This document shows, in pieces, positions 344-34,414 of a stretch of DNA of 47,473 bases. The notes below the pieces were generated by a model. The model ran no database searches, had not been told where the DNA came from, and saw only the letters and a program-made list of their open reading frames with translations. The stretch comes from a virus: the IMG/VR virus record IMGVR_UViG_3300003660_000011; one strand, written 5' to 3'. Within the stretch, counting starts at the first letter, position 1. Each line of letters starts with the position of its first letter. The position numbers and the translations under genes were made by a program.

Positions 344-349
344 TCTCAC

Positions 350-763: not shown

Positions 764-2084
764 GGCCGGGCAGGCGGACACGATGATCGTGCTGGCGCCG
801 CCGCGCGTCGTCGAGGTATGGTCGCGCGAAGTCGAGAAGTGGGGGCACCTCCAAGGTCTGGTCGTCGTGACCCTGAACGGCTCGCCAGCCGATCGCCTTC
901 GTCAGTCCACTACCGGCGCGGCGCACGTACTGGTTCTCTCGCACGACCTGATCCCCTGGTTCGTCGACAAGTGGCCCCATATCAAGAAGGCTACCGGGAA
1001 AACGATCCTAGCGATCGACGAGATCAGCCGGCTGCGCAACCCGCGCAGCAAGCGCGCCAAGAAGCTCCTCGAGATCATCAACGACTTCGACGCGATCTGG
1101 GGCCTGACCGGCACCCCTCAGCCCGATGGCTATGAGGACCTCTACATGACCCTGAAGGTGCTGACCGGCGGTCGCGTCTGGGGTGAGGAGGACTTCGACA
1201 CCTGGCGCAAGATGCGGTTCTACATGAAGGATCACAACGGCTACGACTGGGGCATCCACACCTTCGCCGCCGAGGCCCTGGACCGCACCGCCAACGAGTT
1301 CCTGATGCGCGTGCCGGATGATCACAGCTCCGGCATCCCGGCTCTGAACGAGGGGCCGGACTTCGACCTATGGGTCGACCCGACACCGCGGCAGCAGGAA
1401 GCCAACAACGAGATGCTGAAGAAGCTGATCCTCGAGATCGAGAACGACGCGGACGAGCAGGGCCGCGAGCTGACCGACGAGGATTACGTCGTGGCGCTGA
1501 CCCGGGCGGCGGCGTCGGGCAAGCTCGAACAGGTCGCCCAGGGGTTCATCTACAACGACCAGCGCGACGTGGTCGAGATGTTCCTCGGCGCTACGAGCCA
1601 CGGTAAAGGGCGGTTCCAGACTACGCCGAAGGGCGCGGCGCTGCAGGACTATCTCGAAGACTGCGGCGAGCACAGCCTGATCGTCTACCGGTTCCGGCAC
1701 GACCTCGAGGCGATCAACCATGCTCTCGGCCTTCGGGAGCCGATGCCATACCTGGGTGGCGGCGTCTCGCAGAAGGAAGGCCAGAGGCTCATTGACAAGT
1801 GGAACGAAGGGAAGTTAAAGTACCTGGCGTTGCACCCTCTGAGCGCCGGGCACGGCATCGAACTACAGTTCGGCGGGCGCCGCATGTTTTTCTACAACCC
1901 CACCTGGTCGGGCGAGGAGTATGCCCAGCTCGTCAAGCGCATCCACCGACCCGGCCAGACCAAGCCGGTCTACATCCACCAGATCGGCGTGCGCAACCTG
2001 ATCGACGGGCTGAAGATCGCCCGCTGCCGGGGTCGCGTCGAAGACCAGATCGAGTTCATCAAGAAGCTGAGGAGCATGACATGA
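603..2084 (+). CDS. SNF2/DEAD-like superfamily 2 helicase
   Basis: Motifs GMGGGKT (Walker A), DEISRLRN (DExx), GLTGTP, SAGHGIELQ and HRPGQTKPV (motif VI). ATG 603 has AAGGA 8 nt upstream; TTG 561 and ATG 567 are alternative starts. Confidence 0.85.
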   Translation: MTSSEHTIRSRADLRPAQVALIEEMKQSMELGAVLGMGGGKTVSTLTAFQDLDEAGQADTMIVLAPPRVVEVWSREVEKWGHLQGLVVVTLNGSPADRLRQSTTGAAHVLVLSHDLIPWFVDKWPHIKKATGKTILAIDEISRLRNPRSKRAKKLLEIINDFDAIWGLTGTPQPDGYEDLYMTLKVLTGGRVWGEEDFDTWRKMRFYMKDHNGYDWGIHTFAAEALDRTANEFLMRVPDDHSSGIPALNEGPDFDLWVDPTPRQQEANNEMLKKLILEIENDADEQGRELTDEDYVVALTRAAASGKLEQVAQGFIYNDQRDVVEMFLGATSHGKGRFQTTPKGAALQDYLEDCGEHSLIVYRFRHDLEAINHALGLREPMPYLGGGVSQKEGQRLIDKWNEGKLKYLALHPLSAGHGIELQFGGRRMFFYNPTWSGEEYAQLVKRIHRPGQTKPVYIHQIGVRNLIDGLKIARCRGRVEDQIEFIKKLRSMT

Positions 2085-4224: not shown

Positions 4225-4229
4225 CGTTG

Positions 4230-4340: not shown

Positions 4341-4358
4341 GCCTGGGGGCTTGATTTC
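4329..4358 (+). terminator. Intrinsic terminator-like hairpin 27 nt upstream of the primase-helicase start
   Basis: AGCCCCCA (4329-4336) pairs with TGGGGGCT (4344-4351) around the loop GTAAGCC, followed by TTGATTTC. Confidence 0.55.
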
Positions 4359-4384
4359 ACCGAGATCAAGGACAAGGACTTGAC

Positions 4385-6877
4385 ATGACCACAGCTATCG
4401 ACCGGAAGGTCGCGGCGCAGCAGGCAACCGAAGATCGGTTGCGGCTGCTCTCTCTCGGCTACACTCCCCTTCCAGCCCGCGGCAAGTTGTGCCTGCTCGA
4501 GGGCTGGCCGCACGTCACGCCTGACCGGGCGGTCGTCGAGAAGTGGAAGCGCAATCTCGACCTCTGCTCGTCCGGCATCCGGCTCGAGGGGCGGCAGATC
4601 GCGATCGACCTCGACGTCATGGACGCGAACCTGGTCGAGCAGATGCTCGACAAGCTCTGGGACCACTGGCCTGATCTCGACAACGCCCCGCAGCGCATCG
4701 GCCGCGCGCCCAAGGTGCTCTACCTTGCGCAGCTGCCGAAGGGTGAGGCAGCGCTGACCGTGATGTCGACCAAGCACTGGGTCAGCCCGTCGGGCGAGCC
4801 GATGCACGTCGAGGTCTTCGGCGGTGGGCGGTCCAGGTTCATCGGCTGGTGCGGCCCGCACACGGTCGAGGACAAGATCGGCCCCGACGGCTGGGTCGTG
4901 CATCGCACCTATGATGACGCGGGCACGCTGGTCCCGGCCGAGGACCTTCCGATGATCACGATGGCGACGCTGCGCGCCTGGCTGGAGGACTGCGACACCC
5001 TCTTCCAGCGGGCTGGCTATGTCGAGCATCGGCCCCAGGCCGGCGCCTCGGCAAAGTTCGTGCGCGACATCGAAGAGGACATGGTCTTCGACTGCGACGA
5101 CGGCGTGATCCGCGAGGGCGTGGCCGCGATGGTCGACTACGCAGACAATGACCGGAACGCGCGCTGCGCGCTCAGCTTCCTCGACAAGGCTGCGACGAAC
5201 ACGACGCGCTGCCGGGTGTCGCTGGCGGACGACGGTGAGCTGCGCATCTTTGACTTCGGCGACTGGGTGACGCACGCGCCAGTCGTCGGGGCCGAGGCCA
5301 CGAAACCGGTCGCCCCCGCATCGCTGGGCGGCCTGCTGGCGTCGCTGGGCCTGGGTGGCGGGGGTAGCGCGGCCGAGGCCACTGCCGAGGCGCCTGAGCC
5401 GGAGATCGCCGAGGTCGGCATCGCCGAGCGGACTTATATCGACGCCGGGGGTGACCTCGCGCAGTGGATGGAGGATGACGTGCAGTCGGCGGCCGAGCGG
5501 TTCGAGGACGCGTTCAACGAGCTCCTGTACGGCATGGTCTACGACACGACCGAGGAGGTCACCCGGCGCATCGACGACAGCCCGGAGATCGGGCTGGCCG
5601 CGTCCCGGCGGATGGACAGTTACACCAACCGCTCCCTGATCGTGGTGGGGCCGAAAGGCGGGCGCAAGAAGATCAACCCGATGACCGCGTGGACCGCGTC
5701 GCGCAAACGGCTCGAGGTGTCCGGGATCAGGTTCACCCCCGGGGAAAGCATCATCTACGCCGAGAACGGGCGACGGTGGTTGAACACATGGCGAGAGCCT
5801 GAGGTCGACCCGGCGCGGATCAGCCACGACGCGATCCTGTGCTGGCTCCGGTTCATGGAACACCTGATCCCGGACGAGCGCGAGCGGGAGTGGTTCGAGC
5901 GGTTCGTGGCGCACAAGTTCGTCAACCCGCGCTTCCGTGGGGCCGGCGTCCTGATGGTCGCGGCCAGCACGCAAGGCGCCGGGCGATCGACGCTCATGGC
6001 CGCCCTGGGCGCCGTCTTCGGGGACTACGTGGCGCGCATCTCGAGCGCGCACCTGTTCGACGCCAGCCAGCGCAACGGGTGGATGGAGAAAGCCCTCTGG
6101 GCCTTCGGGAACGAGGTCAAGTTCTCGGTCCGGTACAGCGACCGGGTCGAGGCCTACGAGCGGTTGAAGGACCTCGTCGATCCGGCCCAGAACCACGTCC
6201 GCCTGGATGAGAAGTTCCAGCGGCCGCACGAGGCGCTGGTGTACACGTCCTACCTTCTGGCGACCAACCGGCACGACGCGCTGCCGCTGCCCCCGGACGA
6301 CCGACGGTTCGCGATCATCACCAACGGCGGCAAGATGCCCGAGGAGATGAAGGAGGAGCTCTACGGGCAGTGGTACGTGCGCGGCGTGCCCGGCGACGCG
6401 CTGACGCACAGCCTGCGGGCCTACTACCGATCGCGGGGGACCGAGGTCATGGAGAGCGGGCAGACAGACGACCTGGTGGACGCGCCGCGCTGGTTCGCCG
6501 GGCGGGCGCACATGATCGAGGCAGGGGAGAGTGACGTCGACCAGATATTCAGGGCGGCGCTGGGGCGCATCCCGCCGGGGCAGATCGCCATCCGCCGCGA
6601 TGACCTCGAGAAGCTCCTGCTCGGCGAGCTGCGCGTGCAGGGGATGGAGACCAAGCGTCCGGCGATCCGTCAGTACATAAACGGGCTCCATGGGGAGGTC
6701 GCCGCGGGCGTCGGATGGGAGCTTTTGCCGGGGCGGATCAAGGTCGGCTACAGCGACGTGAAGGCCTCCGTAGCCTGTCGCTCGGGGTCAGTTTCGGCCT
6801 TTATGAAACTGACCCCGAGCGATCGGGAGCGGATTTTGAAAGGTACTGACCCGGTAGGAGTACTAGGTACCTGTTGA
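4385..6877 (+). CDS. Bifunctional primase-helicase (N-terminal prim-pol-like domain, central D5/VirE-type P-loop NTPase, C-terminal extension)
   Basis: LGYTPLP...GW, DLDVMD and HVEVFGGG in the N-terminal third. P-loop QGAGRST. 830 aa. AAGGA RBS. The last 100 nt carry TGACCC iterons. Confidence 0.8.
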   Translation: MTTAIDRKVAAQQATEDRLRLLSLGYTPLPARGKLCLLEGWPHVTPDRAVVEKWKRNLDLCSSGIRLEGRQIAIDLDVMDANLVEQMLDKLWDHWPDLDNAPQRIGRAPKVLYLAQLPKGEAALTVMSTKHWVSPSGEPMHVEVFGGGRSRFIGWCGPHTVEDKIGPDGWVVHRTYDDAGTLVPAEDLPMITMATLRAWLEDCDTLFQRAGYVEHRPQAGASAKFVRDIEEDMVFDCDDGVIREGVAAMVDYADNDRNARCALSFLDKAATNTTRCRVSLADDGELRIFDFGDWVTHAPVVGAEATKPVAPASLGGLLASLGLGGGGSAAEATAEAPEPEIAEVGIAERTYIDAGGDLAQWMEDDVQSAAERFEDAFNELLYGMVYDTTEEVTRRIDDSPEIGLAASRRMDSYTNRSLIVVGPKGGRKKINPMTAWTASRKRLEVSGIRFTPGESIIYAENGRRWLNTWREPEVDPARISHDAILCWLRFMEHLIPDEREREWFERFVAHKFVNPRFRGAGVLMVAASTQGAGRSTLMAALGAVFGDYVARISSAHLFDASQRNGWMEKALWAFGNEVKFSVRYSDRVEAYERLKDLVDPAQNHVRLDEKFQRPHEALVYTSYLLATNRHDALPLPPDDRRFAIITNGGKMPEEMKEELYGQWYVRGVPGDALTHSLRAYYRSRGTEVMESGQTDDLVDAPRWFAGRAHMIEAGESDVDQIFRAALGRIPPGQIAIRRDDLEKLLLGELRVQGMETKRPAIRQYINGLHGEVAAGVGWELLPGRIKVGYSDVKASVACRSGSVSAFMKLTPSDRERILKGTDPVGVLGTC

Positions 6878-7125
6878 CGCGCGTGCCGGGGTCAGTTTCA
6901 AACTGACCCCAAAACGCAAATGACCCCGAAAGTGACCCGACTTTTATGTAATGATTTCAAAGCGGTACTTACTACAGGGTCAGAAGGTCAGTAAATATAT
7001 AAAAGAGAGAGTAGAGTATGGATATTGTTATTTATTATATGGTATAACATGTAACAAATAACCATATCCATGTTGTATAGAGCTAGGGACGAAAATTTAC
7101 TGACCCTGACCCCAAAACTGACCCC
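6784..7125. promoter_or_regulatory. Iteron array (12 copies of TGACC(C) in both orientations) flanking an A+T island; putative origin of replication
   Basis: Copies at 6784-6794, 6806-6816, 6844-6852, 6888-6898, 6900-6910, 6921-6927, 6933-6938, 6977-6983, 6986-6991, 7101-7106, 7107-7113 and 7119-7125. About 31% G+C over 6941-7100 by hand count. Confidence 0.6.
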
Positions 7126-7190
7126 GGGCAATCTTGCGGTGAAACCCGGAGCATGTTACAAATCACATGTTATAGAACCCAGGAGGCACC

Positions 7191-7427
7191 ATGCAGGAAG
7201 ACTACGACACCCCGCCCCAGCCGCGCCAGATGCCAGAGGGCTATCTGACGCCGACAGCGATGCTGGACGCGCTCACCCCGCTCGAGGTAGGGGAGAAGTA
7301 CCATATCCCCGCCACGATCTTCACTCGCACTTCGCGGCCGTACATCTCCCGTACGGGGCGTCTGCTGAGACGGGGCTTCTCCGTGCGCAAGACGCAGCAC
7401 GGGTATAACGTCTGGCGGATGTGGTAG
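7191..7427 (+). CDS. Hypothetical basic protein (78 aa)
   Basis: AGGAGG 4 nt upstream of the ATG. About 85% G/C at third positions. No family recognised. Confidence 0.65.
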   Translation: MQEDYDTPPQPRQMPEGYLTPTAMLDALTPLEVGEKYHIPATIFTRTSRPYISRTGRLLRRGFSVRKTQHGYNVWRMW

Positions 7428-7431
7428 GGGG

Positions 7432-7460
7432 TTGACATAGGTACTTGTTCGTCGTACGGT
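7432..7460 (+). promoter_or_regulatory. Sigma70-like promoter TTGACA-17-TACGGT
   Basis: -35 at 7432-7437, 17-nt spacer, -10 at 7455-7460. It lies 29 nt upstream of ATG 7489, which has an AAGGAG RBS. Confidence 0.5.
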
Positions 7461-7488
7461 GAAAATCAGTGAACAAGGAGAGACCCCG

Positions 7489-7692
7489 ATGCGACAGTAC
7501 CAACCCCGCCCGCTCCTCTCGGACCTCGACGCGATCATGGTCTTGGAAGGCGGCGATGCCGACGAGGAAACCCAGGTCGAGGCCATGCAGGCGTTGATCG
7601 ACAGCGGCACCGTCTGGAAGCTGCAAGGTTCCTACCACCGCGCCGCCGAGCACATGATCTCGGCCGGCCTCTGCACCCAGAAGGAGAACTGA
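7489..7692 (+). CDS. Hypothetical acidic protein (67 aa)
   Basis: AAGGAG at 7475-7480, ATG at 7489. Composition is plausible. The GTG 7459 start in the ORF track would overlap the promoter. Confidence 0.6.
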   Translation: MRQYQPRPLLSDLDAIMVLEGGDADEETQVEAMQALIDSGTVWKLQGSYHRAAEHMISAGLCTQKEN

Positions 7693-7693
7693 A

Positions 7694-8338
7694 ATGCGTA
7701 ACGAGGTCACCCCCACGATGTCGGTGCACGGTATGCTCGACGCCGCTTTCACCTTCTTCAACCGCCGGCTCTTCGATGACGAGCTGCCGGTCTGTCTGAT
7801 CACGATCCAGCGCAGCCGCACCGCGCACGGCTACTTCTGGGGCGACATGGTCGCCGCCCGGGCCGGCGAGGGAACGATCGACGAGATCATGATGAACGGG
7901 ATCACGATGGCCCGGGAACCGGCCGTGGTCTTGTCGACCCTGGTGCACGAGATGACCCACGTCTGGCAGCACTACTATGGCAAGCCGGCCAAGGGCGGGT
8001 ATCACAACAAGGAGTGGGCCTGGAAAATGCGCGAGGTCGGCTTGATCCCGTCGACCACGGGCGCCGAGGGCGGGGCCCAGACCGGGAAGAAGGTTTCACA
8101 CTACATCGACCCCGAGGGGCACTTCAGCGTGTTCGTCGAGGAGTTCCTGAAGGAGCACGGCATCGACTGGCACCTCCTGGCCGCCCCGGTGAAGGAAAAG
8201 AAGAAGGACCTGTCGAAGGTCAAGCACACCTGCCCGGAGTGCCAGCTGAAGGTCTGGGGCAAGGTCGGCATCAAGGTCTTCTGCGAGGACTGCGACGTGC
8301 GGCTGCTGCCTGAGGGCCACGAGGAGGACGAGGAATGA
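7694..8338 (+). CDS. SprT-like zinc metalloprotease with C-terminal zinc ribbon
   Basis: LVHEMTHVWQ (HExxH) in a SprT-like context. C-terminal CPECQ...CEDCD. AAGGAGA RBS. Confidence 0.7.
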   Translation: MRNEVTPTMSVHGMLDAAFTFFNRRLFDDELPVCLITIQRSRTAHGYFWGDMVAARAGEGTIDEIMMNGITMAREPAVVLSTLVHEMTHVWQHYYGKPAKGGYHNKEWAWKMREVGLIPSTTGAEGGAQTGKKVSHYIDPEGHFSVFVEEFLKEHGIDWHLLAAPVKEKKKDLSKVKHTCPECQLKVWGKVGIKVFCEDCDVRLLPEGHEEDEE

Positions 8339-22900: not shown

Positions 22901-25900
22901 ATGGCTGAACTCGATTTCCTGAACGGAACCCCGACCGCCCCCGGTGAGACGGAGTTCGATGCGTGGTTGCGGGATCGCAACCAGAAAAGCGCCCTGCGCG
23001 CGTCCACGGTTCTGACGGCAGCGCGTACCGTCACCACCCCGGAGGAGGTCGCCAAGCGTCGCAGCGTCGCGGCGCTGGCCGGCTCTGTCCTCGGGACAAA
23101 CCTCCCGGCCCGGCTTCTGACCGACCCCATGACGCTGCAGATGGTCGAGAACAAGGTGATCAGCACCCGGGCGCTGGACACGTTGCGGAAGAACCCGCTC
23201 CTCGCCGAGTGGTTCTCGGACCAGGACAACGCGGCCATCGCCAGCACGGACGTTGAGGAACTGGGGCTGATGTCCCAGGTCCTGTATGGTGTGGCGCGCG
23301 GCGCTGACAAGTTCTACGACGACCTGGTCGGCCCCGGCGCGAACTTCCGCACCACGGCCGAAGCCCTATCGCGCGCGCGTGACAGCCAGCGCACCTATAC
23401 CGAGTTGCTCGCTGAAGAGCGGGCCGCCTCTGCGGGCGGTGTCGAACCGGTGGGCGGCATTGCCGGCGCGCGGGTCGCGGCGCAGAAAGCCAGCGGCACC
23501 GCACCGAAGACGACCGACGAGGACGCGGCCAACCCGTTCGCCTCGGCGCGCGCGATGAAGCGCTGGCTCGACGGTCGCATTTACGGGGTCACCTCGTTCA
23601 ACGATCAGGAGGACCTCGAGGGGGATAACACCGAGGCCACCCGCGAGATGCAGCGCGAGGAGGTTGAGCGCCAGGAGGACTTCCCGATCGGGCGCGGGGC
23701 CGCCGAAGTCTCCCGCAAGCTGGCGGAGATACCGGCCGAGGCGGGCTTCCTCGAGAGCACGAAGACCGTGTTCGACATCATGACTGAGCGCCCGGGCGAC
23801 TTCGTCGGGTTCCTCGCGGGTACGGCGGCAGAGAGCGGCGTCTCACTGATCGCTGCCGCCGGGGTTACCGCGGCGACGCGCAACCCTGCGCTGGGCCGCG
23901 TCGCCATGTTCGGTACCGCGGTGCCGGTGGTCCGGGCCTCGAACACGTTGGAGATGGCTTCCGAGATGGGCTACGACCTGTCGAAGCCGGAGGATGCCCG
24001 GCGCCTGGCGCAGAACCCGAGCGATCTGGAGCGCATCGTCGATAGCGCCGGGGCCTACTCGACCGTCATTTCTATGGTCGACGCGCTGACCGCCGGGCTC
24101 GGCTCGGCGATGGCGAAGAACCCCGTCGGCAGTTTCGCGATCGAGGCGATCTCGCAAGCGGTCGCCGGTGGCGGAGGCGAAATCCTGGCCCGCATGGTGA
24201 GCGGGCAGCAGTGGTCATGGACGGACGCGATCCTTGAAGGTCTGGCCGAGATGGCGACCGCCCCGTTCGAAGCGATGGGCGTGGGCAGCGAGGTCGTCTT
24301 CCGCAAGTATCGCGAGAGCCAGCGCGCATCAGATCGGCGCGGGTTCTTCCAGGCGCTGAGCCAGGGTTCGGCTGATAGCGCGCTGCGCAAGCGCTCGCCG
24401 GAGGCCTACAAGTCGGCGATCGAGAAGCTCACCAAGGACGGTCCTGTCGAGAATGTATACGTCGATGCCGGGCGCATGGAACAGCTGTTCCAGGACGATC
24501 CCGAGGCGTTGCGCGCACTCTTCGACGCGGTGCCCGATCTTGACTACCGTGCCTTCCAGAAGGCCGCCGAAACCGGCAGCGTCTTCGCGATCCCGACGGC
24601 CACCTACGCCGCGAACATCGCGGGGACCGAGATCGACGCGCGGCTGACGGACCACCTTCGCCTACGCCCAGATCGGCTCTCCTACGCAGAGGCGCAGGAG
24701 GCGATGGCCGAGACCGAAGAGCAGATGAAAGGGTTCGAAAAGCGCCTCAAGGAACTTGAGGAAACCGCCGATCTGGACCCCGCAGCGCAGCAGGAATACG
24801 AGGACCTGACAACGCAGCTGATCGCTGCCGGCCGGGCGCCGGGCGTGGCTCGGGCCGAGGCGCAGCTCTTGGCAAGCACCGTGCAGACGATGGCCCAGCG
24901 CCAGGGTGTCACGACGGCGGAGTACGTGCGGCGCAACCTGCTGCCGACGATCCGTCGCGAGACCTCGACCGCCGAGAAGTCGCCGTTCCGCGTGATGCGC
25001 ATGGGTGATCTGAGCGAGGCGCTACGCGATCCTTCGCGCGCGACGCTGCCCGAGTTTGCCGCAATCGCTGACGAGCTCGCCGAGCAGAACCTGACGCCGG
25101 AGACGGCGTCAGAAGATGACATCAGGCTAGCAGCAATATCGGTTGCTGACAGAGGAGGGCTTGTTTCTAGTCTCGACGAGGAGTTCCTGCTGACGCCGAG
25201 CGGCATCTACCGGGCCACCCCCGGCGAGCCGATGATGCAGACCGTCAGTCTGCGCAACGGGACCGAGGACCTGTCTGCGTGGGGACACACCCCTGGCAAG
25301 TCGATCACGACCCGGGCCTTGGCGCTGATCATGCAGGCCCGCCAGCGCGCGCACTATGGCAAGATCAAGCGCACCGACTTCAGCCAGAAGACCGTCGAGA
25401 AGATGGCCAACTGGATGGCGGATGAGATCGAGTTCGAACTTCAGACACCCGGCGCCACGGCCGAGGGCTGGTACACCACGAAGTTCCAGGCCGCCCTCGA
25501 CGTCATGACCGCCCGGTTCCCGGAGTTCGACACTTCGGTCGAGGAGTTCGTCCGGCCGAATTTGCCCGGCCTGCGCAAGGTTAAGTCCGCGTACGAGGCA
25601 CGCCAGCTGATGACGATGATCATCGCGGTGACCTCGAACGGCGCCAAGGTGACCGACAACTACCGGATGGCCGTCGACGCGTACCGCCAGTACCGCGAGA
25701 CCGGCCGGTTCATCAAGGTCAAGAACGGCGGCGATCGGGCGAACTCGATCACCAGCCACCTGAACCGGATCGCGCAGCTGATCGGGGAGTTCGACAGCGT
25801 CTCGGAGGTTCAGGCCTTCCTGACCGAGGACGTCACTGTCTCGGACCTGAACAAGCAGCTGAAGGCGATCGGGATGCCGGTCCTCAGCAAGATGCCGTCC

Positions 25901-28900
25901 GATGCCCGCGTGCCGCGCGCCACGGCGATCTTCGGACCGAAGCTTGGAGCCTTCTACGCGAACCTGACCGGGGCCGACGGCTACCTGACGATGGACCTGT
26001 GGTGGAGCCGCACGATCAACCGCTACCGCGGCGACGTGTTGCCCCGCGTCAGCGGGCTGAAGAACGCCGTCGACAGCAAGGGCAAGCCGATCGGGCTGCA
26101 TCGCTTCAAGTGGCTCGTCGGCCAGCCGGACCTGACAGACAGTCAGGCGCTGAAGCTGGTCGTCGACCACGCGCAGCGCTACAAGGACCGGGGCTACACG
26201 GAGGGAGACGAGGCCGAGAAGGCCGCGAATACCTTGTACAAGGACGCCTTCGTCAAGCTGCAGGAGAGCCCGCTCTCGGCCAAGGAACGCGCCTTCATGA
26301 TCGAGGTCGCGGGCGCCGCGCGCGACGAGGTCTACGCACGCACCGGAAAGCGCTATTCCGTTGCTGACATCCAGGCGCTGATCTGGTACTATGAGAAACG
26401 GCTCATGGCAGACATGGGTGCGAGAGAGAGCGGAGACATCAGCTATGAAGAAGCGGCAAGACGTGCAATTACTGGACCCGGCGGAGATGTCTTCGCTCAG
26501 GGAACCGACGGCGGACGAGCTGAAAGCGATGATCGCGCAGCGGGCGGAACGCCAGCGAGCGCGGATGGAGGAGATGGCGATGCAGATCGGCGTCTCCCCG
26601 ATCTCGAGCCCGCGAGCCCAGGCCCTGTCGCGGGGGTTCGGAGCCTAGCGTCAACCTACATGCGGCGCATGGGTCTTCCCGTGCGCCACCAAGCCACCTA
26701 TGTCAAGGTTGACAAGGCCCGCGCCGAAGAGGTCGCGCGGCTTTACGACGAGATGCCGGACGCGCCGGACGATCCTGAAGTGCAGCGCGCCTACCAAGCG
26801 TTGGCCCAGGAGACGATCGCGCAGTACGACGCGCTCCTCGAGCTGGGGCTCACCTTTGAGTGGATCACTGGCGACGATCCTTACGCCTCGCCCGCCGAGG
26901 CGATCAAGGACATGCAGGAGAACAAGCACCTGTGGGTTTTTCCGACCGACAGCGGCTTCGGTACGCTGAGTGAAGCCAGCGCGAAGAACCCGCTACTCGC
27001 GATGTCTGGTCGGATCGTCGACGGCCGCGAGGCCCGGATCAACGATCTGTTCCGCATCGTGCACGACGTTTTCGGTCACGGTTCCGAGGGCGCCAGCTTC
27101 GGAGCTCGCGGCGAGGAGAATGCGTGGCAGGCACACGTTCGCATGTTCTCGCCGTTGGCCGCCCGCGCCATGACTACCGAAACCCGTGGGCAGAACAGCT
27201 GGGTGAATTTTGGGCCGTACGGAGAACAGAACCGCAAGGACCCAAAGAACACGGTCTTCGCTGACCAGAAGGTCGGGTTGCTGCCGCCGTGGGTGAGTAC
27301 GATCGGGCAGGCGGAAGATGCCCCAAACGGGACGCTGTATCAGGCGATGCCAGACTTGCCGGAGGGCACGATCCTTCGTGAGGACGGCCAGCCGCTCACT
27401 ATGTACCACGGGACGAACCGCGAGTTCACGCAGTTCCGAGATGGGGAGGTATTCCTGACATCGCGCCGCGGTCTGGCAACCGAGCACGCACTCCGTGAAG
27501 GAGCGACCGGTCGCCCACGCGTTATAGAAGCGACCGTCGCTCTCCAGAACCCGCTGGAGGTAGACGCGGGCTCCGTCGAGCCCGACGTATACTGGCTGCA
27601 GAACGCGGCCGCGATCCGCGCGAGCGTTGCGGCCGGGAACCATGACGGTGTCATGATTACGTCGGGCAGCGAGTTGATGGTCATCGCGCATCGCGCTGAT
27701 CAGGTAACACAGTTTGATCCGCGGAGGTTCTTCCAAGGCGCACCCGGCATCCTATTGAACGAGACCGCCACGCCCGCCGACTTTGACGGTGAGCTCAGGC
27801 TGAGCTCTTTCCGCAAGAAGGGGTGGTTTATCGTGTCCGCAACCCAGAGCCACTTCGGCGCATGGGACAGCGCGGAGAACGTGGCTGAGGCCGAACGCGC
27901 CAGGAAGTTCCTGGCCGACAACGGGCTTGCGCACCGCGAGGTCCGGGGTCGTTACGCAGGCACGGACGACGGGCCGTCGTTCCTGGTCTTCGGGGACGAA
28001 GCTACGTGGGGCCAGACCATGCGGGACATGTTCCGCCAGGAGAGCATCCTGACGCGGCAAGGCTTCGTCTATTCCCCGTACGAGGAAAGAAAGCCTGTAC
28101 CGATCACGGGGCTCCGCATGGGAGAAGCCCTGAACCCCGACGAGGACTACCAGACCACACTGCCGGACGGACGCACCTTCACGCTGGACCTGGACTGGCC
28201 TGATCCGAAGTCGGACGACCCGCGCGACGATCTCGCGCTGCGCGAGGACGGCAAGGTCGAGTTGATCCACTGGTCGCCGAAGGAGCGCGCGACGATCGAC
28301 CCGAAGCACGCTGGCAAGGGCAAGATGGACGGCCCGGAGCGCCATCGTTCGGGACCGAACAAGGCCTTCTACGGGCTGAACATCGGCGCGCGGAACACCG
28401 CTTACCGGCGCGAGAGCCCGTCGCTTGGCGGGATCAAGCACACCGTCGCTCTCGATCCGTCGCGCCTCTACCCGTGGGATACCGACCCCGACGGGCTGCG
28501 CGCGAAGATCGACGGCAAGCTCCCGGCCGCCCAGCAGATCGGCGCCTACGAGAAGGCCATCAAGAAGGCTGGCTACGCAGGATATTTCGTCATCGACGGC
28601 CCGCTCGGCGATGTCGCCGCGGTCTTCGAGGCGCTGCCGGTCGAGAAGGTCGAGGTGGACACGGCGCTTTACCAGAGCGACGAGGCGTTTTTCAAGTCGG
28701 CCCTGGCCGAGGCGATCCGCGATGCGAAGCAGGAGACCGCCCCCGTCAAGGACTGGCTGAAGATCATCCCCAAGATGCCCGGCGTGAAGAAGGCCGAACT
28801 CGAGTGGACCGGTCTGACTTCCTGGCTCGAGAGCCAGGACCCGGATCGCAAGATGACCCGGCACCAGATTTACCACTGGCTCTCGAGCGAGCTGGTACAG

Positions 28901-31900
28901 ATCGAACGGGTCGATGGCTCTGGCGCGTTCTCGAGCTACGTCGAGGACGTGCAAGGCGCGGAGCACTATGAGGAAATCCTCCTCACCGTCCCGAACCTGG
29001 ACGCGATCGGTCCGAACGCCGGGAAAGAGATCGCGTCGACCGTGGCCAACCGCGGGCATTTCGACACGCCGAACATCGTTGTGCACGCCCGCGTGCAGGC
29101 GACGCCGGACACGCTCTTCATCGACGAAATCCAGTCGGACCTGAACAGCTTCTGGCGCAAGCGCGGTGGGCAGGCTCAGGCGCTGGGCCCGGTGCCGGAT
29201 GAGGTGAAGGCCGAGGTCGAGGCGTACAGCGCGTCGCAAATCGCAGTTTCGGGCGCGCGGCGAGCGACGGACAGCGCGCGTGAGGCCTTCAAGGATGCCG
29301 TCGGCACCTTTACCTATAGCGGCATCGCTGTCACCTATGACACGATGGACGGCGCGTTGTTCAGCTCGTCCCAAACACTGCGCCTGCTGGCGGGTACCCC
29401 GGACGTCGAGGCCTTTGACACTGAGCTCGGAGTATTGATCCAGCGTCAGAAATATCAACTGGCAGGCTTCCATGCAGTAGAGGTCGGTAAAGCAGCGCGA
29501 GGTGCGTTCAGCGGCGACATGGTCGGGATGGTCAAAGAGATTGAACGGCTCGACGAAGTCCGTGTCGACCTCCAGATGCGGAGCAGTGAAATTCGCAACT
29601 CGCTGTCTCAGGAGGCGCGCGATCTCTACAAAGGTGGCGAGAACTCGCTTCCGCTGCCGCTCACCCCCTTCGAGGGCGAGAGCGCGATCACGCTGGCGAT
29701 GAAGTATCTGACCACCTATGCCGCGCGCGAAGGGTTCAAGAAGATCGCATGGACCCCGGGCTACATGCAGATGAAGCGCTGGGGCGTGCAAGAGCAGCGC
29801 GCCCAGGGTATGGTCGAGGCGTACATGGTGATGAGCGCCGGGGGCGGCGGTCATCGTGTCGTCTCTCTGCGCCTAGAGGGTCAGCGTACCGCCGACTTCA
29901 CCGTCGACAGCGCGGGGCAGGTCACTGACACGGGGCGCGGCTTCCCGCCCGATCCGATCCGCAATCGCAACATCCGCGAAATACTGCCACAGGCCTTGGC
30001 CGAGCGCATCATGCGCCCGTTCCCCGACGGCGAGACTATGATGTCCGAGGAGGCCGCGGACTTCCCGGAGGTCAACATCAGCGACAACGCCGGGCAGGGC
30101 TACCGCATCGTCTATGACCAGCAGATGAAGCGGTTCCTCGAGAAGTGGGCGGGCAAGTTCGGCGGGAAGGTCGAGAGCGACGTGTCGGTGGCGCGGGACA
30201 CGGGAGAGGCCCCGCTCGGACCGCGCGTGGCGGCGTACCGCGAGGAGTGGCGCAACCGAGAAGGCGCGGGGCTCTCGGCCGATAGCGTGCGACGTTTTAT
30301 AAACGCCGCCGAGGACTTCGGCATGGCAACCGAAGGCGCCGTGCGGGAGATGCGGATCGCTTACGATAGCGGGGATTACGGGCGGGCAGTCGACCTCGTG
30401 TTCCGTAGACTGACGAAGCGAGGTGTGCGGCAAGTCGCGCAGCAGTTCGGAGATAGCGCGTTTTTCCCAGACGAAGGCCAACCCGTCTGGTCTATCACCC
30501 TGACCGACGAGTTCCGCGCCGAGGCGTCCAAGCCGCAGCCGCTGTTCCAGGGCCGCCCGACGGGCGCCCGTGGACAGATCATCCTCCCGCCCGCGGGCAG
30601 CGATGCCGCGCCGGAGATCACCCTGTTCGACCGGGCCGACCTGTCGACCGTGATCCACGAGGGCGGGCACTGGATGCTGTGGCTCTTGCAGACCGGCGCG
30701 AACGCCGGGGACCAGTTCTCCAGCGAGAGCATGGAGACCGTCAAGGCGTGGCTCGCCAGCCAGGCCGAGGACATCGCGGCCGAGGTCGGGCTGATCGGCC
30801 CACAGGTTCTGGAGTTCCTGGCGAACGGTACGACCGGGGCGGCCGACGTCGACGCCGCCGTGCACCGTGGCATCCACGAGCGCTTCGCCCGTGGGCTCGA
30901 GGCTTACATGCGTGAGGGCAAGGCGCCGAGCATCGCCCTGCGCGGCGTCTTCCATCGCTTCGCCGCGTGGTTGATGGAGGTCTACCGCAACGCAAAGAAG
31001 CTGCGCGTCGAGCTCTCTGACGAGGTGCGTCAGGTCTTCGACAAGATGATCGCCACTGATGCCCAGATCGCCCAGGCTCGCCAGCTCAGCGTCGGTGCCG
31101 AGCAGATCGCGGCCACCGCCCGTGCGATGGGCCTCGACGAGGCCAGCTACGAAGAACTGGTCCGGTTGCAGGATGAGGAGCGCGCCGAAGCCTTCGGGCT
31201 GGCGCTGCGCGAGACCCTCGCACCGATCATGGCCCAACGGTCGAAAGAGATGCGCGCGCTGCGTGCCGAGCTGACCAAGAAGATCAGCGCCGAAGTCAAC
31301 GCGCAGCGCCACAACCGCGCCTTCGAGTGGCTCGCCAACGGCCGCTGGGCGGGCGTGGCCGACGTGCCGGACGATCTCCCTGCCGACCTACGTATGGACC
31401 CGGAGACCCTCGGCGACGAGTACGGCCAAGATGTGCTGGACAAGCTGCCGCGCGGTCGCCGCCCGATGACGAAGGTCGGCGGCATCACCGCGGACGAGGC
31501 GGCCGGCTGGTTCGGTTACGACAGCGGCGCCGAGATGCTGCGCGACTTGTCCGAGAAGCCCCGTGCTCGCGACGAGATCAAACAGCGCGTGCAGGCGGCC
31601 CTGGCCGAGCACATCGAGGCGCAGGACCCGCGTGACGCGGCCGAGGCCACGGCAGACCTGGTAGACGCGCTGCACGGCGAGAAGCACGGTCAAGTCCTGG
31701 CCGCCGAGCTGCGCGCAATCAACCGGATTTCAAACCGGAAGCGGGCGATCACCAGCCGCCAGCAAGCCGCTCAGATCGCTCGGGATATCATCGCCCGGAC
31801 ACCGGTCAGAGAAGCGGTCCGCGCTGACCTGCACGCACGCCAGGCCCAGACCTTTGGCGAGCAGGCCGCACGCCTGCTCGTCACCGGTGACACCGAGGGC

Positions 31901-34414
31901 GCGTTCGAGGCCAAGCGCAAGCAGCTGATCCAGCACTCGCTCTTTGTCGAGAGCCGCAAGGCCGCCGACCTCATGGCGAAGGCCGAGCGCAAGGCGGCCC
32001 AGTTGAAGCGCCCCGGCACCCGCAAGAACCTGGCGGGCGAATACCTCGAGGCGATCGACGACCTCCTGTACACCTACGACTTCCGCAAGATTTCGGCCGC
32101 GGCGGAGAAGAAGCGGGGCGGCTTGCTGCGCTACATCGAGATGATGATCAAGGCCGGGCGCGAGAACGAGCTGGCGATCCCGGATCACCTGATCACCAAC
32201 GCGAACCGCACACCCTACAAGACGCTGACCGTGCAGCGCCTGCAAGGTGTCCTCGACGCGCTGACCAACATCGAGCACACCGCACGGCTGAAGAAGAAGC
32301 TCCTCGACCGTCAGCGCGAGCGCGACATGGACGCGGTCGTTGCGGACATCCAGGAAGCCTTCGACGAGAACGTGAAGGGCGTCGACCTGAACCGGGTCCC
32401 GACCGGCTTCGAGCGCGTGCGCGACGCGGTCAAGGAGTACGTCAACTACGTATCGAATGCCGACACCCTGCTGCGGCGCCTCGACGGCTGGAAGCTCGGC
32501 GACGTCTACCGGCACATCAAGTCGGGCATCGACCGCGCGTCGTCCGAGGAAGTCGTCATGCGGCTACGCGCAGGGGCGGAACTCGATAAGCTCTTCGACG
32601 GCTACAGCCGCGGCGAGCGTCGTCGGATGGCCGTTCGGCAAGTCTGGAAGGGCTACGACCAGAGCCTCAGCAAGTGGGACCTGATCTCGATCGCGCTGAA
32701 CAGCGGGAACAAGGACAACTGGGAGCGCATGACCTCGCGGGATAACCCCCACGCGATCTCGCCGGCCCAGGCCAAGGAGCTGCTGTCGAACCTCGACGAG
32801 CGCGATTGGAAGTTCGTCCAGTCTGTCTGGGATCACCTCGACGCAGAGTATTGGCCCCAGATCGCAGCGCGCGAGAAGCGCACCACGGGGGTCGTCCCGA
32901 AGAAGGTCGAGGCCATGTTCATGGCGTCGGATATTCCGAACCTGCCCGCGGGCTTGACCGGCGGCTACTACCCGATCGTCTACGACCGGCGCTTCTCGGC
33001 CAAGGTCGCCGAGGAGAAGCACCAGGAAATCCAGACCGCAATGCAGGCCGGGCGCTTTGGCAAGGCGCAGACCCGCAACGGCCACACCAAGGAACGCGCG
33101 GCAGGTTCCGGCGGGCGCACCGTCGAGCTGGGTATCCACGTGCTCTTCGGCCACGTGCACCAGGTCATCCATGACCTGGCCCTGTCCGAGGAAGTGGCGA
33201 ACAGCTGGAAAATCCTGCAGGACCCACGCGTGCGGGGGATGTTCGAGCGCGCTGGGCTCCTGACCGATCTGGCTTCGCTCGAGGTCTGGCTGCAGGATAC
33301 GGCGGCCGGGCAGATCGTGGCCGCGGGTGTGCTGGGGCGGATGGCGCGGCACGCGAAGTCGGGCTTCACCGTCTCGAAGCTGGCCTTCAACATGTCGACC
33401 GTCGCGATCCAGTTCACCGGGCTTGTGCAGTCGGCCGCCTTCCTCGGGAAGCGTGATCTCGCGAAGGGGTATTCCTCGTACGTTGCACAAGGGATGTACC
33501 CCGCCGCGCAGCGCGTCAAGGCACGGTCGGTTTTCATGGCCGAGCGCGAGCGCACCTTCCAGCGCGACATGTTCGACCTGCTCGGAGAGACGGCCAAGAC
33601 GCCGATCAGTGGCTCGCTGGCGGACGCCCGCGACCTGCTCATGTCGGCAGGGTTCTGGGCGATGCAGAAGGTCCAGTTCTACGTCGTCGACGTGCCGACG
33701 TGGATGGCGGCCCACGGGCAGGCGCGCAAGCGTGGTATGACCGAAGACGAGGCCGTGCATTATGCTGACCGGGCGGTGGCCCGGGCGCAGGCGTCCGGCG
33801 TCTACGCCGACCGCACCGCGATCGAACGTGGCACCTTGGGTCGGGACACACGTCAGAACGAGTTCCTGCGCCTCTTCACGGCTCTGGGTTCCTACATGTT
33901 CGCCAAGTTCAACATCGCCCAGGAGATTGTCGGGCGGACGCGACGCGACGTCGCGGACCCAGGTAAGAGCTCGATCGCCGCCGTGCTGAACGGCACGATC
34001 GACATGCTGCTGATCTTCACGGTCGAGGCGGTGCTCTATCACATGATCAAAGGCACGCTGCCGGGGGATGACGAAGACGAAGACGAGCAAAGTTGGCTGG
34101 CGTTCCTCGCCTCACAGACGGCGCTGTCGGCGATGGGCACGTTGCCCTTCATCCGCGACATGGTATCGGTGATCCAGGGCTTCGATGGCGGCGGTGCCTA
34201 CGGCGGCGTCCTCGAAACGGTCGGCAAGCCGCTGGTCCAGATCGGGCAGGGTGAGGTCGACAAGCAGCTGATGCGGTCGATCAACGATCTCGTCGGTCTG
34301 GCGGTGCCCGGCTATCCCTCGACGGCTATCTGGCGCCTTGCGGACGCCGAGATGGAGCGGCAGAGCTCGGGGAATTTCTCCCCGCTCGATTACATAATGG
34401 GCGTCCCCCGCTAG
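22901..34414 (+). CDS. Giant (3,837-codon) polyvalent virion/ejection protein ORF in the T7 gp16-like position. Its continuity around 26445-26660 is questionable.
   Basis: Uninterrupted ORF. Gly/Ala-rich hydrophobic helices near both ends. Internal YHGT..F..F ART-like module, HEGGH motif and IDEIQSD/AWTPGY-type modules as seen in large polyvalent phage proteins. Confidence 0.7.
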   Translation: MAELDFLNGTPTAPGETEFDAWLRDRNQKSALRASTVLTAARTVTTPEEVAKRRSVAALAGSVLGTNLPARLLTDPMTLQMVENKVISTRALDTLRKNPLLAEWFSDQDNAAIASTDVEELGLMSQVLYGVARGADKFYDDLVGPGANFRTTAEALSRARDSQRTYTELLAEERAASAGGVEPVGGIAGARVAAQKASGTAPKTTDEDAANPFASARAMKRWLDGRIYGVTSFNDQEDLEGDNTEATREMQREEVERQEDFPIGRGAAEVSRKLAEIPAEAGFLESTKTVFDIMTERPGDFVGFLAGTAAESGVSLIAAAGVTAATRNPALGRVAMFGTAVPVVRASNTLEMASEMGYDLSKPEDARRLAQNPSDLERIVDSAGAYSTVISMVDALTAGLGSAMAKNPVGSFAIEAISQAVAGGGGEILARMVSGQQWSWTDAILEGLAEMATAPFEAMGVGSEVVFRKYRESQRASDRRGFFQALSQGSADSALRKRSPEAYKSAIEKLTKDGPVENVYVDAGRMEQLFQDDPEALRALFDAVPDLDYRAFQKAAETGSVFAIPTATYAANIAGTEIDARLTDHLRLRPDRLSYAEAQEAMAETEEQMKGFEKRLKELEETADLDPAAQQEYEDLTTQLIAAGRAPGVARAEAQLLASTVQTMAQRQGVTTAEYVRRNLLPTIRRETSTAEKSPFRVMRMGDLSEALRDPSRATLPEFAAIADELAEQNLTPETASEDDIRLAAISVADRGGLVSSLDEEFLLTPSGIYRATPGEPMMQTVSLRNGTEDLSAWGHTPGKSITTRALALIMQARQRAHYGKIKRTDFSQKTVEKMANWMADEIEFELQTPGATAEGWYTTKFQAALDVMTARFPEFDTSVEEFVRPNLPGLRKVKSAYEARQLMTMIIAVTSNGAKVTDNYRMAVDAYRQYRETGRFIKVKNGGDRANSITSHLNRIAQLIGEFDSVSEVQAFLTEDVTVSDLNKQLKAIGMPVLSKMPSDARVPRATAIFGPKLGAFYANLTGADGYLTMDLWWSRTINRYRGDVLPRVSGLKNAVDSKGKPIGLHRFKWLVGQPDLTDSQALKLVVDHAQRYKDRGYTEGDEAEKAANTLYKDAFVKLQESPLSAKERAFMIEVAGAARDEVYARTGKRYSVADIQALIWYYEKRLMADMGARESGDISYEEAARRAITGPGGDVFAQGTDGGRAESDDRAAGGTPASADGGDGDADRRLPDLEPASPGPVAGVRSLASTYMRRMGLPVRHQATYVKVDKARAEEVARLYDEMPDAPDDPEVQRAYQALAQETIAQYDALLELGLTFEWITGDDPYASPAEAIKDMQENKHLWVFPTDSGFGTLSEASAKNPLLAMSGRIVDGREARINDLFRIVHDVFGHGSEGASFGARGEENAWQAHVRMFSPLAARAMTTETRGQNSWVNFGPYGEQNRKDPKNTVFADQKVGLLPPWVSTIGQAEDAPNGTLYQAMPDLPEGTILREDGQPLTMYHGTNREFTQFRDGEVFLTSRRGLATEHALREGATGRPRVIEATVALQNPLEVDAGSVEPDVYWLQNAAAIRASVAAGNHDGVMITSGSELMVIAHRADQVTQFDPRRFFQGAPGILLNETATPADFDGELRLSSFRKKGWFIVSATQSHFGAWDSAENVAEAERARKFLADNGLAHREVRGRYAGTDDGPSFLVFGDEATWGQTMRDMFRQESILTRQGFVYSPYEERKPVPITGLRMGEALNPDEDYQTTLPDGRTFTLDLDWPDPKSDDPRDDLALREDGKVELIHWSPKERATIDPKHAGKGKMDGPERHRSGPNKAFYGLNIGARNTAYRRESPSLGGIKHTVALDPSRLYPWDTDPDGLRAKIDGKLPAAQQIGAYEKAIKKAGYAGYFVIDGPLGDVAAVFEALPVEKVEVDTALYQSDEAFFKSALAEAIRDAKQETAPVKDWLKIIPKMPGVKKAELEWTGLTSWLESQDPDRKMTRHQIYHWLSSELVQIERVDGSGAFSSYVEDVQGAEHYEEILLTVPNLDAIGPNAGKEIASTVANRGHFDTPNIVVHARVQATPDTLFIDEIQSDLNSFWRKRGGQAQALGPVPDEVKAEVEAYSASQIAVSGARRATDSAREAFKDAVGTFTYSGIAVTYDTMDGALFSSSQTLRLLAGTPDVEAFDTELGVLIQRQKYQLAGFHAVEVGKAARGAFSGDMVGMVKEIERLDEVRVDLQMRSSEIRNSLSQEARDLYKGGENSLPLPLTPFEGESAITLAMKYLTTYAAREGFKKIAWTPGYMQMKRWGVQEQRAQGMVEAYMVMSAGGGGHRVVSLRLEGQRTADFTVDSAGQVTDTGRGFPPDPIRNRNIREILPQALAERIMRPFPDGETMMSEEAADFPEVNISDNAGQGYRIVYDQQMKRFLEKWAGKFGGKVESDVSVARDTGEAPLGPRVAAYREEWRNREGAGLSADSVRRFINAAEDFGMATEGAVREMRIAYDSGDYGRAVDLVFRRLTKRGVRQVAQQFGDSAFFPDEGQPVWSITLTDEFRAEASKPQPLFQGRPTGARGQIILPPAGSDAAPEITLFDRADLSTVIHEGGHWMLWLLQTGANAGDQFSSESMETVKAWLASQAEDIAAEVGLIGPQVLEFLANGTTGAADVDAAVHRGIHERFARGLEAYMREGKAPSIALRGVFHRFAAWLMEVYRNAKKLRVELSDEVRQVFDKMIATDAQIAQARQLSVGAEQIAATARAMGLDEASYEELVRLQDEERAEAFGLALRETLAPIMAQRSKEMRALRAELTKKISAEVNAQRHNRAFEWLANGRWAGVADVPDDLPADLRMDPETLGDEYGQDVLDKLPRGRRPMTKVGGITADEAAGWFGYDSGAEMLRDLSEKPRARDEIKQRVQAALAEHIEAQDPRDAAEATADLVDALHGEKHGQVLAAELRAINRISNRKRAITSRQQAAQIARDIIARTPVREAVRADLHARQAQTFGEQAARLLVTGDTEGAFEAKRKQLIQHSLFVESRKAADLMAKAERKAAQLKRPGTRKNLAGEYLEAIDDLLYTYDFRKISAAAEKKRGGLLRYIEMMIKAGRENELAIPDHLITNANRTPYKTLTVQRLQGVLDALTNIEHTARLKKKLLDRQRERDMDAVVADIQEAFDENVKGVDLNRVPTGFERVRDAVKEYVNYVSNADTLLRRLDGWKLGDVYRHIKSGIDRASSEEVVMRLRAGAELDKLFDGYSRGERRRMAVRQVWKGYDQSLSKWDLISIALNSGNKDNWERMTSRDNPHAISPAQAKELLSNLDERDWKFVQSVWDHLDAEYWPQIAAREKRTTGVVPKKVEAMFMASDIPNLPAGLTGGYYPIVYDRRFSAKVAEEKHQEIQTAMQAGRFGKAQTRNGHTKERAAGSGGRTVELGIHVLFGHVHQVIHDLALSEEVANSWKILQDPRVRGMFERAGLLTDLASLEVWLQDTAAGQIVAAGVLGRMARHAKSGFTVSKLAFNMSTVAIQFTGLVQSAAFLGKRDLAKGYSSYVAQGMYPAAQRVKARSVFMAERERTFQRDMFDLLGETAKTPISGSLADARDLLMSAGFWAMQKVQFYVVDVPTWMAAHGQARKRGMTEDEAVHYADRAVARAQASGVYADRTAIERGTLGRDTRQNEFLRLFTALGSYMFAKFNIAQEIVGRTRRDVADPGKSSIAAVLNGTIDMLLIFTVEAVLYHMIKGTLPGDDEDEDEQSWLAFLASQTALSAMGTLPFIRDMVSVIQGFDGGGAYGGVLETVGKPLVQIGQGEVDKQLMRSINDLVGLAVPGYPSTAIWRLADAEMERQSSGNFSPLDYIMGVPR
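26445..26648 (+). CDS. Candidate embedded 67-codon gene in the +1 frame of the giant ORF
   Basis: GGAGA lies 8 nt before ATG 26445 and TAG is at 26646. By hand count 57/67 codons end in G/C, against 33/69 in the giant-ORF frame over the same nucleotides. The sequence MKKRQDVQLLDPAEMSSLREPTADELKAMIAQRAERQRARMEEMAMQIG... is plausibly helical. Confidence 0.45.
   Translation: MKKRQDVQLLDPAEMSSLREPTADELKAMIAQRAERQRARMEEMAMQIGVSPISSPRAQALSRGFGA
27332..27718 (+). other. ADP-ribosyltransferase-like module of the giant protein (polyvalent-protein ART type)
   Basis: MYHGTNREFTQFRDGEVFLTSRRGLATEHA...VIEATVALQNPLEV matches the YHGT..F..F / F-[FL]-T / ...NP pattern I associate with ART domains of polyvalent phage proteins. 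Local G+C is lower. Confidence 0.45.
30656..30670 (+). other. HExxH (HEGGH) zincin-type motif inside the giant protein
   Basis: DLSTVIHEGGHWMLWLL, with HRGIHERFARGLEAYMREG about 80 codons downstream. Based on the motif only. Confidence 0.35.

Follow-up and report, generated by a model that had tools for sequence, protein, structure and literature searches.

The DNA analysed here, a 47,473-nucleotide (nt) stretch of a viral genome (IMG/VR record IMGVR_UViG_3300003660_000011; hereafter the window), carries a giant open reading frame (ORF) for a polyvalent-type virion protein. Wholly within it, on the same strand and in another frame, lies a short ORF that is probably a gene in its own right. 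We call the annotated frame of the giant ORF frame 0 and the frame of the embedded ORF +1. The embedded ORF begins at the end of one module of the giant protein (module A), crosses a linker and stops inside the next module (module B) (Table 1).

Table 1. Features of the giant gene around the embedded ORF (coordinates of the window; aa, amino acids; pN/pS, ratio of nonsynonymous to synonymous change; AF2, AlphaFold2; L008/L032, nearest relative of the window)
Feature	Position	Strand	Basis
Giant host gene, 3,837 codons, polyvalent-type virion protein	22901..34414	+	ORF list, weak Pfam matches, homologous giant genes
Module A, ~357 aa, frame 0, ends ADIQALIWYYEKRLMADMGARESGDISYEEAARRAI	25400..26470	+	tblastn, alignment
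Shine-Dalgarno-like GGAGA	26432..26436	+	sequence, duplex energy; function inferred
Candidate embedded +1 gene, 67 codons and TAG, encodes MKKRQDVQLLDPAEMSSLREPTADELKAMIAQRAERQRARMEEMAMQIGVSPISSPRAQALSRGFGA	26445..26648	+	codon flip, ATG from rare TAT, L008/L032 orthologue, pN/pS, AF2
Frame-0 linker TGPGGDVFAQGTDGGRAESDDRAAGGTPASADGGDGDAD, Gly/Asp/Ala/Arg-rich	26471..26587	+	not conserved among homologues (blastp alignments)
Module B, frame 0, begins RRLPDLEPASPGPVAGVR	26588..27800	+	alignments; its initial ~20 codons lie over the end of the embedded ORF

Homologous giant genes are found in Octadecabacter BD virus 1 (gp16) and Nostoc phage Nsp-JY18. The Pfam matches of the giant protein stay below threshold, with LPD22 at 25.7 bits (cut-off 28.6) and ART-PolyVal at 29.4 bits (cut-off 31.2), and a weak ART-PolyVal match lies about 265-331 aa inside module B; one relative is annotated as 'large polyvalent protein' and another, L122, bears ART-PolyVal and LPD38. 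Module A, whose C-terminal end reads ADIQALIWYYEKRL...DISYEEAA, has 458 relatives in IMG/VR and none in PDB or Pfam, and the embedded gene is always found directly after it. The linker reads as a non-conserved spacer between two shuffled modules.

The original prediction held that the coding signal moves to the +1 frame at 26445-26648, and this was borne out both by sliding-window analysis of the G/C fraction at third codon positions (GC3) and by codon-usage scans: the +1 frame carries the coding signature in this interval. The giant ORF has an overall GC3 of 0.846, and in 150-nt windows over 26381-26500 the frame-0 value falls to 0.40-0.50 while the +1 value rises to 0.82-0.88. Furthermore, we scored 8,689 windows of 50 codons by a codon-usage log-likelihood ratio trained on 12 plus-strand genes of the window, and found that an off-frame outscores the true frame solely at 26381-26714, with a largest margin of 72.8 bits. 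Here the +1 frame reaches +37.5 bits, compared with a typical in-frame score of 50 ± 15, and frame 0 drops to -35 bits. A maximum-likelihood model with two switches places the entry into +1 at nt 26444 and the exit at ~26627, so the switch points coincide with the ATG at 26445 and lie near the TAG at 26646.

The earlier counts of G/C-ending codons were reproduced for frame 0 (33/69), for +1 (57/67) and after the switch (61/76); the stretch before the switch, given as 26/38, came to 27/38 on recounting. Likewise, GGAGA with its 8-nt spacer, the ATG (26445-26447), the TAG (26646-26648) and a frame-0 ATG at 26660 lie where they had been placed, and frame 0 does use GAT, GGA and GCA, codons avoided elsewhere in this genome with a GC3 of 85%. 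The rare A/T-ending codons of the stretch are GGA, GAT, GCA, AGA and CGT, whose final A or T becomes the middle base of Glu, Met, Gln and Lys (also Ile) codons in the +1 frame.

One correction applies: the switch is not a clean replacement of one frame by the other. The last ~60 nt of the +1 ORF (26588-26648) overlap frame-0 sequence whose amino acids are conserved, and the switch is accordingly an overlap. Alignment of the homologous giant genes shows them unsplit at this point, with frame-0 amino acids conserved from ~nt 26588 (RRLPDLEPASPGPVAGVRSLASTYMRRMGLPVRHQ; blastp against the giant genes of both phages named above); in many IMG/VR contigs the match begins at exactly this first residue of module B. 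The frame-0 sequence RRLPDLEPASPGPVAGVRSLASTY, which precedes the ATG at 26660, is conserved in both phages and in many IMG/VR contigs. From 26417 to 26660 frame 0 contains no ATG, GTG or TTG that could give module B a start of its own, and frame 0 is open across the site in 121/121 distinct related loci, which indicates that the host frame is still translated across the overlap. Within 26588-26648, the first ~20 codons of module B are rich in A/T-ending codons (GAT, CGT, GAT, CCA, CCT, GTT, CTA, TCA), which supply the +1 residues I, V, I, Q, L and F and the +1 stop codon. This may reflect dual constraint in the tail of the embedded gene. At the corresponding position a relative, L003, has G/C-ending codons.

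The same arrangement recurs among relatives. We scanned the best 80 of the 458 IMG/VR relatives of module A, training the codon scan within each contig and counting positions in nt from the Trp of the module-A motif WYYEK (W+n). A flip to +1 starting 0-100 nt after this Trp was found in 52 of the 80 loci, with margins of up to 105 bits; a flip to +2 was seen in none of them, and frame 0 remains open. Another 41 distinct loci, from metagenomes, all have an open frame 0, and 40 of them have the +1 ATG. The +1 translations form a recognisable family, with M..KKQ.. at the start followed by h-h-D-x-x-D-P-[LMIV]-[WHF]... and [LM]-[ST]-P-E-E-R...L..[LF]. The ORF of the window shares the position (after WYYEKRL...SYEEA), the frame and the way in which the start codon arises.

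The nearest relative of the window (L008/L032) is 82% identical in module A and carries an orthologous +1 ORF, MKTRPDVQLVDPSEWPDLSPTPEQVSAMAQ.... Beyond it, no closer relative of the window lineage was found among metagenome contigs scanned with +1 patterns or among GTDB genomes scanned with the family profile, and the best match of a module-A scan of metagenomes reached 56% identity. Two annotated phage records that contain module A have no nested ORF annotated.

We found that the start codon itself carries a signal. In the window, the +1 ATG spans the frame-0 codons TAT GAA, which encode Tyr-Glu in the conserved C-terminal part of module A (W+61), and across the family it has three origins: TAT GAA at W+61, GAT GAC at W+49 and TAT GGN at W+22. 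Among 41 high-GC loci with low TAT usage, all 32 that bear the flip have a +1 ATG, and 27 of these 32 use TAT at the conserved Tyr pair, where 8.6 would be expected. In L033, L034, L035, L049 and L054, the five that lack a +1 ORF, both of these tyrosines are encoded by TAC. We rejected the idea that these five encode the same peptide in frame, as linker, through a compensated frameshift, because the similarity was not significant (best p = 0.018 among 20 tests). Judged by these codon counts, the +1 ATG is shown to be maintained against codon bias, which argues for independent initiation.

Upstream of the ATG, the GGAGA of the window is a putative ribosome-binding site 8 nt away, and its predicted duplex with the anti-Shine-Dalgarno sequence has an energy of -6.6 kcal/mol, near the 10th percentile of the background. 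In relatives, a W+22 ATG goes together with a rare Arg codon, AGG, that yields AAGAGG-N5-6-ATG, and +1 stop codons often lie 1-2 codons upstream of the ATG. A promoter-like site was also seen at 26364-26392 (plus strand), ~50 nt upstream of the embedded ATG: CTGACA, 17 nt, TACTAT, with an upstream TG, matching 9/12 positions where 0.1 such sites are expected in shuffles. The frame-0 codons that build it encode the conserved A-D-I...W-Y-Y motif; on inspection by eye, some high-GC relatives have TAT as the second Tyr codon.

Substitution patterns locate the constraint. Upstream of W+60, an alignment of 13 loci has a mean pairwise diversity of 0.3-0.6 at the third positions of frame 0 and of 0.03-0.3 at its first and second positions, whereas from W+90 to ~W+190 the third positions fall to 0.00-0.15 and the frame-0 first positions are the most variable. 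Over this stretch the frame-0 residue sets are radical (DGNST, EKQRT) and the +1 sets conservative (ILMV, DE, W, S, S, L, T, G, LM). The same shift of the variable codon position is seen in another group, of 7 loci. These patterns show that the +1 frame is under purifying selection in the relatives.

Between the window and L032, pN/pS in module A is 0.32 in frame 0 and 1.7 in the off-frames; in the linker the ratios are 0.84 for +1 and 1.7-2.5 for frame 0. The +1 frame is the best-scoring one in the window lineage, although the constraint is weak and the sample small. Indels between the two embedded ORFs are multiples of three, and changes that are synonymous in frame 0 end at ~26461 while changes synonymous in +1 start at ~26468, 5-8 codons after the ATG.

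A profile built from the +1 peptides retrieved 63 called proteins (P0001-P0063) of 55-99 aa without a Pfam domain, which share the pattern ...RVxDExDPLWSS...LTxGMxPEER.... The family is rare, with only 86 clusters among 1.84 billion in an exhaustive search; it has no match in Pfam or PHROGs, and its source names are solely 'hypothetical protein'. Two members, P0055 and P0054, are separate genes at the edges of small islands, that of P0054 encoding an integrase and a D5_N primase. Both are preceded by an AGGAGG ribosome-binding site (AGCAGGAGGTACACAC-ATG), both have an N-terminus as long as that of the embedded ORFs (M, 16 residues, DERD), and both have 3-4 stops in the frame equivalent to that of the giant gene. 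The frame-0 motif RPSVVF proves to be an off-frame shadow of the +1 DPLWSS, since the free-standing genes read RPYVVF in the same off-frame. The contig of P0039 also has a Mob_Pre relaxase, and P0020 is followed after 61 nt by a gene for a protein of at least 1,175 aa. At the level of sequence homology, these cases show that homologues of the relatives' +1 proteins occur free-standing. An AF2 family model of P0055 has a coil at residues 1-35 followed by helices (mean predicted local distance difference test score, pLDDT, 73.5), and Foldseek found no match to it in PDB with E < 3.

By locus, a free-standing homologue lies at the edge of an ~8-kb island with an integrase and a D5_N primase (L118, 8001-8370), and homologues also lie at L114 6001-6273 and L121 583-849. 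After the stop codon of the L118 copy, the -1 frame continues as a truncated version of the next polyvalent-gene module (GRESIAAYTPTEDFKNTVGEFKHRSPTFYGMQQE and a stop codon), so that this copy looks as if it had been cut out of a polyvalent gene. Longer family members (P0065, P0066 and P0087, 111-168 aa) repeat the unit NLPFDPxxEAMK / YDPIEEAMxxxPxLTREKAxEMAKAFGF, whose C-terminal part is also found alone in many other proteins of 58-130 aa.

The free-standing copies bear on frame 0 as well. When 57 embedded proteins were randomly recoded with synonymous codons, frame 0 stayed open with a median probability of 0.086; it is actually open in 57/57. Together with the stop codons in the free copies, this indicates that selection keeps frame 0 open in the embedded copies and that the same frame decays in the free ones.

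The peptide of the window itself has a predicted isoelectric point of 9.7 and a mass of 7.5 kDa, and includes QDVQLLDPAEMSSLR and EPTADELK. In a single-sequence AF2 model, the N-terminus is a coil and residues 23-48 form a long helix (pLDDT about 90), a layout shared with the P0055 model, where a long helix likewise follows an N-terminal coil. The peptide has no Cys, signal peptide, lipobox or hydrophobic N-terminus. It had no match in GenBank phages (tblastn) or in a word-indexed protein search, and, searched together with the +1 peptides of four relatives, it gave only noise against Pfam and PHROGs.

Taken together, these results make it probable that 26445-26648 is a separately initiated small gene overprinted on the inter-domain linker that follows module A. 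Of the explanations that the original prediction had listed, a gene overprinted on a disordered linker is the one that the codon flip, the selection, the start codon and the free-standing genes support. Under this hypothesis, ribosomes on the giant gene would continue across the site in frame 0, producing a Gly/Asp/Ala/Arg-rich spacer, of which nothing would be demanded except the lack of a stop codon. Other ribosomes would initiate at the ATG at 26445 behind GGAGA and make a basic, largely helical protein of 67 aa, terminating at the TAG at 26646, 60 nt inside module B. We infer the independent initiation at 26445 from the start-site evidence given above.

Several observations on the window lineage weigh against this reading. 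Its peptide scores 0.8 bits against the family hidden Markov models (HMMs) with hmmsearch, and shuffled peptides score higher. In hhalign, QLLDPAE--MSSLRE----PTADELKAMIAQR pairs with viDp.Dpl...le....m.p.er...L..l in the expected register at P = 0.051. Homology of the window peptide to the small-protein family is thus marginal, and its link to the family draws on genomic position, reading frame and start site. No fold or family match that points to a function came from Foldseek, Pfam, PHROGs or PDB. GGAGA is lost in L032, which has a different ATG with GGGAG upstream, and L033-L035, the closest module-A relatives after L032, are without the +1 ORF. The +1 pN/pS of 0.84 was obtained over about 30-50 codons, and for the window alone the chance probability of an open frame 0 is 0.40, which is uninformative.

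These points lead to the main rival specific to the window, namely that the ORF is a relic: a formerly functional embedded or intervening gene that is now unexpressed and unselected and whose codon signature persists. The +1 pN/pS, the failure of the family HMMs to recognise the peptide and the state of L033-L035, which lost or never had the ORF, would all fit decay. We nevertheless consider a relic unlikely. Both the window and L032 retain an intact ORF with an ATG and a Shine-Dalgarno-like element, the indels between them are multiples of three, and the rare TAT at the start is retained. Furthermore, +37.5 bits per 50 codons is near the score of real genes, and the frame-0 pN/pS of 1.7-2.5 indicates that sites 'silent' in frame 0 are still held.

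A shade less likely still is programmed +1 frameshifting after module A, for example at GGA CCC G (26474-26480), which would give a truncated N-terminal protein with a +1 tail ending at the TAG at 26646, beside the full-length protein. A body and a tail in different frames, with frame 0 free of stops, is the layout of recoding; the synonymous changes between the window and L032 swap frame 5-8 codons past the ATG; and both sequences have a CCC-N quadruplet, with a Shine-Dalgarno-like element upstream as in prfB. Against this, the 13-locus alignment contains no conserved slippery motif between the ATG and the onset of +1 constraint, although a +1 frameshift site would be expected to have a conserved slippery codon with a stimulator (a Shine-Dalgarno sequence 3 nt upstream, or a stop or hungry codon in the A site), and CCC-G occurs only in the window and L032. 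In these 13 loci the +1 residues K-K-Q-S just past the ATG are already constrained and the GAT that forms the ATG is invariant. The ATG kept against codon bias, which is absent where there is no +1 ORF, the +1 stops shortly before it, and free-standing homologues that start at the equivalent residue behind their own AGGAGG all disfavour this option, which the original prediction had also raised. Rfam, run on 26200-26900, returned no known recoding element, only a sub-threshold chance match.

That the pattern is an artefact, whether of compensating sequencing or assembly indels or of the codon composition of the linker, is very improbable. Gly, Asp and Ala codons begin with G, so a linker rich in them lifts +1 GC3 automatically; by itself, however, this composition would not account for the A/T-ending GGA, GAT and GCA, and it leaves the low frame-0 GC3, the position-specific substitutions and the free-standing homology unexplained. 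The earlier suggestion of compensating indels or sequence errors is refuted by independent assemblies, L008/L032 and ~100 further contigs showing the same frames. Most improbable of all, and refuted in the form first proposed, is that the giant ORF mis-joins two large genes with a small one between them, the first merely lacking a stop codon and the second starting at 26660: this ATG does lie 12 nt past the +1 TAG and frame 0 could be open by chance in the window alone, but 24 conserved frame-0 residues lie upstream of it with no start codon from 26417 onwards, homologues are continuous, and frame 0 is open in every related locus and closed by stops in the free-standing copies.

Two public or related records deserve mention. 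The related contig L122 (47.5 kb) has two long ORFs in place of the giant one, 19-5511 and 5172-8048, which overlap by 340 nt in different frames, the second carrying the ART-PolyVal and LPD38 domains; a genuine split, a site of frameshifting or a fault in the assembly could each explain this. A 39-kb circular record, PQ492659.1 (Limnohabitans phage DC33, L112), encodes a protein of more than 3,000 aa with module A under the taxonomy line Inoviridae, which looks like a mis-assignment in the public record.

If the overprinted gene is real, what might its product do? Judging from the invariable place of the hidden gene immediately behind module A, we propose with low confidence that the small protein, translated from the late mRNA that also encodes the giant protein, cooperates with the neighbouring module of that protein when it is injected or packaged, for instance as its chaperone, inhibitor or adaptor. 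Polyvalent proteins are thought to be injected multi-effector proteins, and a co-encoded small partner tied to one module would call for a different approach to the study of that module. ORFs that lie inside longer ones go unreported by gene callers, so a conserved small-protein family carried by about a hundred phage contigs or more is nearly invisible in the databases. The locus is also a case of dual coding of unusual clarity: the unconstrained frame is that of the large gene, and the free-standing copies are natural controls. A single change, T26446C, which turns TAT into TAC and is silent in frame 0, would destroy the +1 ATG and spare the giant protein.

Other inter-module linkers of related giant genes likewise flip to +1 and never to +2. 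Such flips were seen in L017 (2603-3005), L022 (2720-3032), L015/L016 (2783-3098), L009 (2585-3014), L011 (2146-2479 and 2900-3143), L013 (2984-3515) and L097-L105 (~W+890..1100, with W at 3500); in L097-L104 the frame-0 third-position diversity falls from ~0.5 to ~0.2 there. One of the +1 peptides reads ..PDDPIFERGW..ALTPEEE..KKxLEDRYKKSQG up to its stop codon and lies upstream of an LPxLE/EGLP module; another reads ELENSKP..EEYEExYxYWMxRQGQSI..NRLK before its stop. The family HMM does not recognise these peptides (L017, L022, L015, L009 and others) and gives no support to their membership in the same family.

It is conceivable, though we would not bet on it, that giant polyvalent genes carry a systematic second layer of several different small +1 genes in their inter-domain linkers. 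If so, a small gene and its adjoining domain would shuffle as a cassette, and the small protein would be the partner of that domain, for example as a chaperone, an antidote or a packaging or injection adaptor. The same proteins would circulate free-standing in satellite-like islands and mobilisable plasmid-like contigs, and the linker of the giant protein would be a mere off-frame shadow of a real gene. Such an arrangement could have originated when the giant frame read through an intervening gene.

Among known systems, prfB and the structural genes of Listeria phage PSA exemplify programmed +1 frameshifting. They resemble the present locus in a +1 change inside a continuous ORF with a Shine-Dalgarno-like element upstream, and differ from it in that the window has no conserved slippery site or A-site stop codon and has instead a selected ATG and free-standing homologues with their own starts.

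The host gene resembles the polyvalent proteins described in phages and conjugative elements (Iyer et al. 2017, PMC5512222), being giant, modular, shuffled and multi-domain, with LPD22-like and ART-PolyVal-like regions, and lying among virion genes. In PMC5512222 the words 'frameshift' and 'overlapping' are absent, and the few uses of 'embedded', 'nested' and 'reading frame' are unrelated to genes hidden in polyvalent proteins; a +1 coding layer in polyvalent-protein linkers is not described there.

Genes overprinted on disordered regions of viral proteins have been reviewed (PMC8227390, PMC3494269). Dual coding in which one frame is of low complexity and weakly constrained, with a sharp switch in the codon position of substitutions, is common to those cases and the present one. 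Here, however, it is the frame of the large, older-looking host gene that is unconstrained and that of the small gene that is constrained. Since free-standing relatives exist, the overlap may stem from readthrough of an intervening gene by the giant frame, or from gene capture, rather than from de novo birth.

The closest parallel is found in the spanin genes of phage lambda and its relatives, where Rz1 lies entirely inside Rz in the +1 frame. In both systems a short same-strand +1 gene with its own start codon and ribosome-binding site (putative here) lies wholly within a longer gene, both products are made (here, as predicted from the sequence), and the inner gene is overlooked by automatic annotation. 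Membership in the o-spanin (Rz1) family itself was rejected, as the peptide lacks the signal peptide, lipobox and Cys of such a lipoprotein. Furthermore, the host here is a polyvalent virion protein of 3,837 codons and not a lysis gene, the overlap occupies an unconstrained linker between domains and moves together with a single domain module, and the embedded family has free-standing homologues in other mobile elements. An embedded +1 gene of the Rz1/Rz kind is thus a known phenomenon, of which this locus is a new example in the polyvalent-protein class of hosts.

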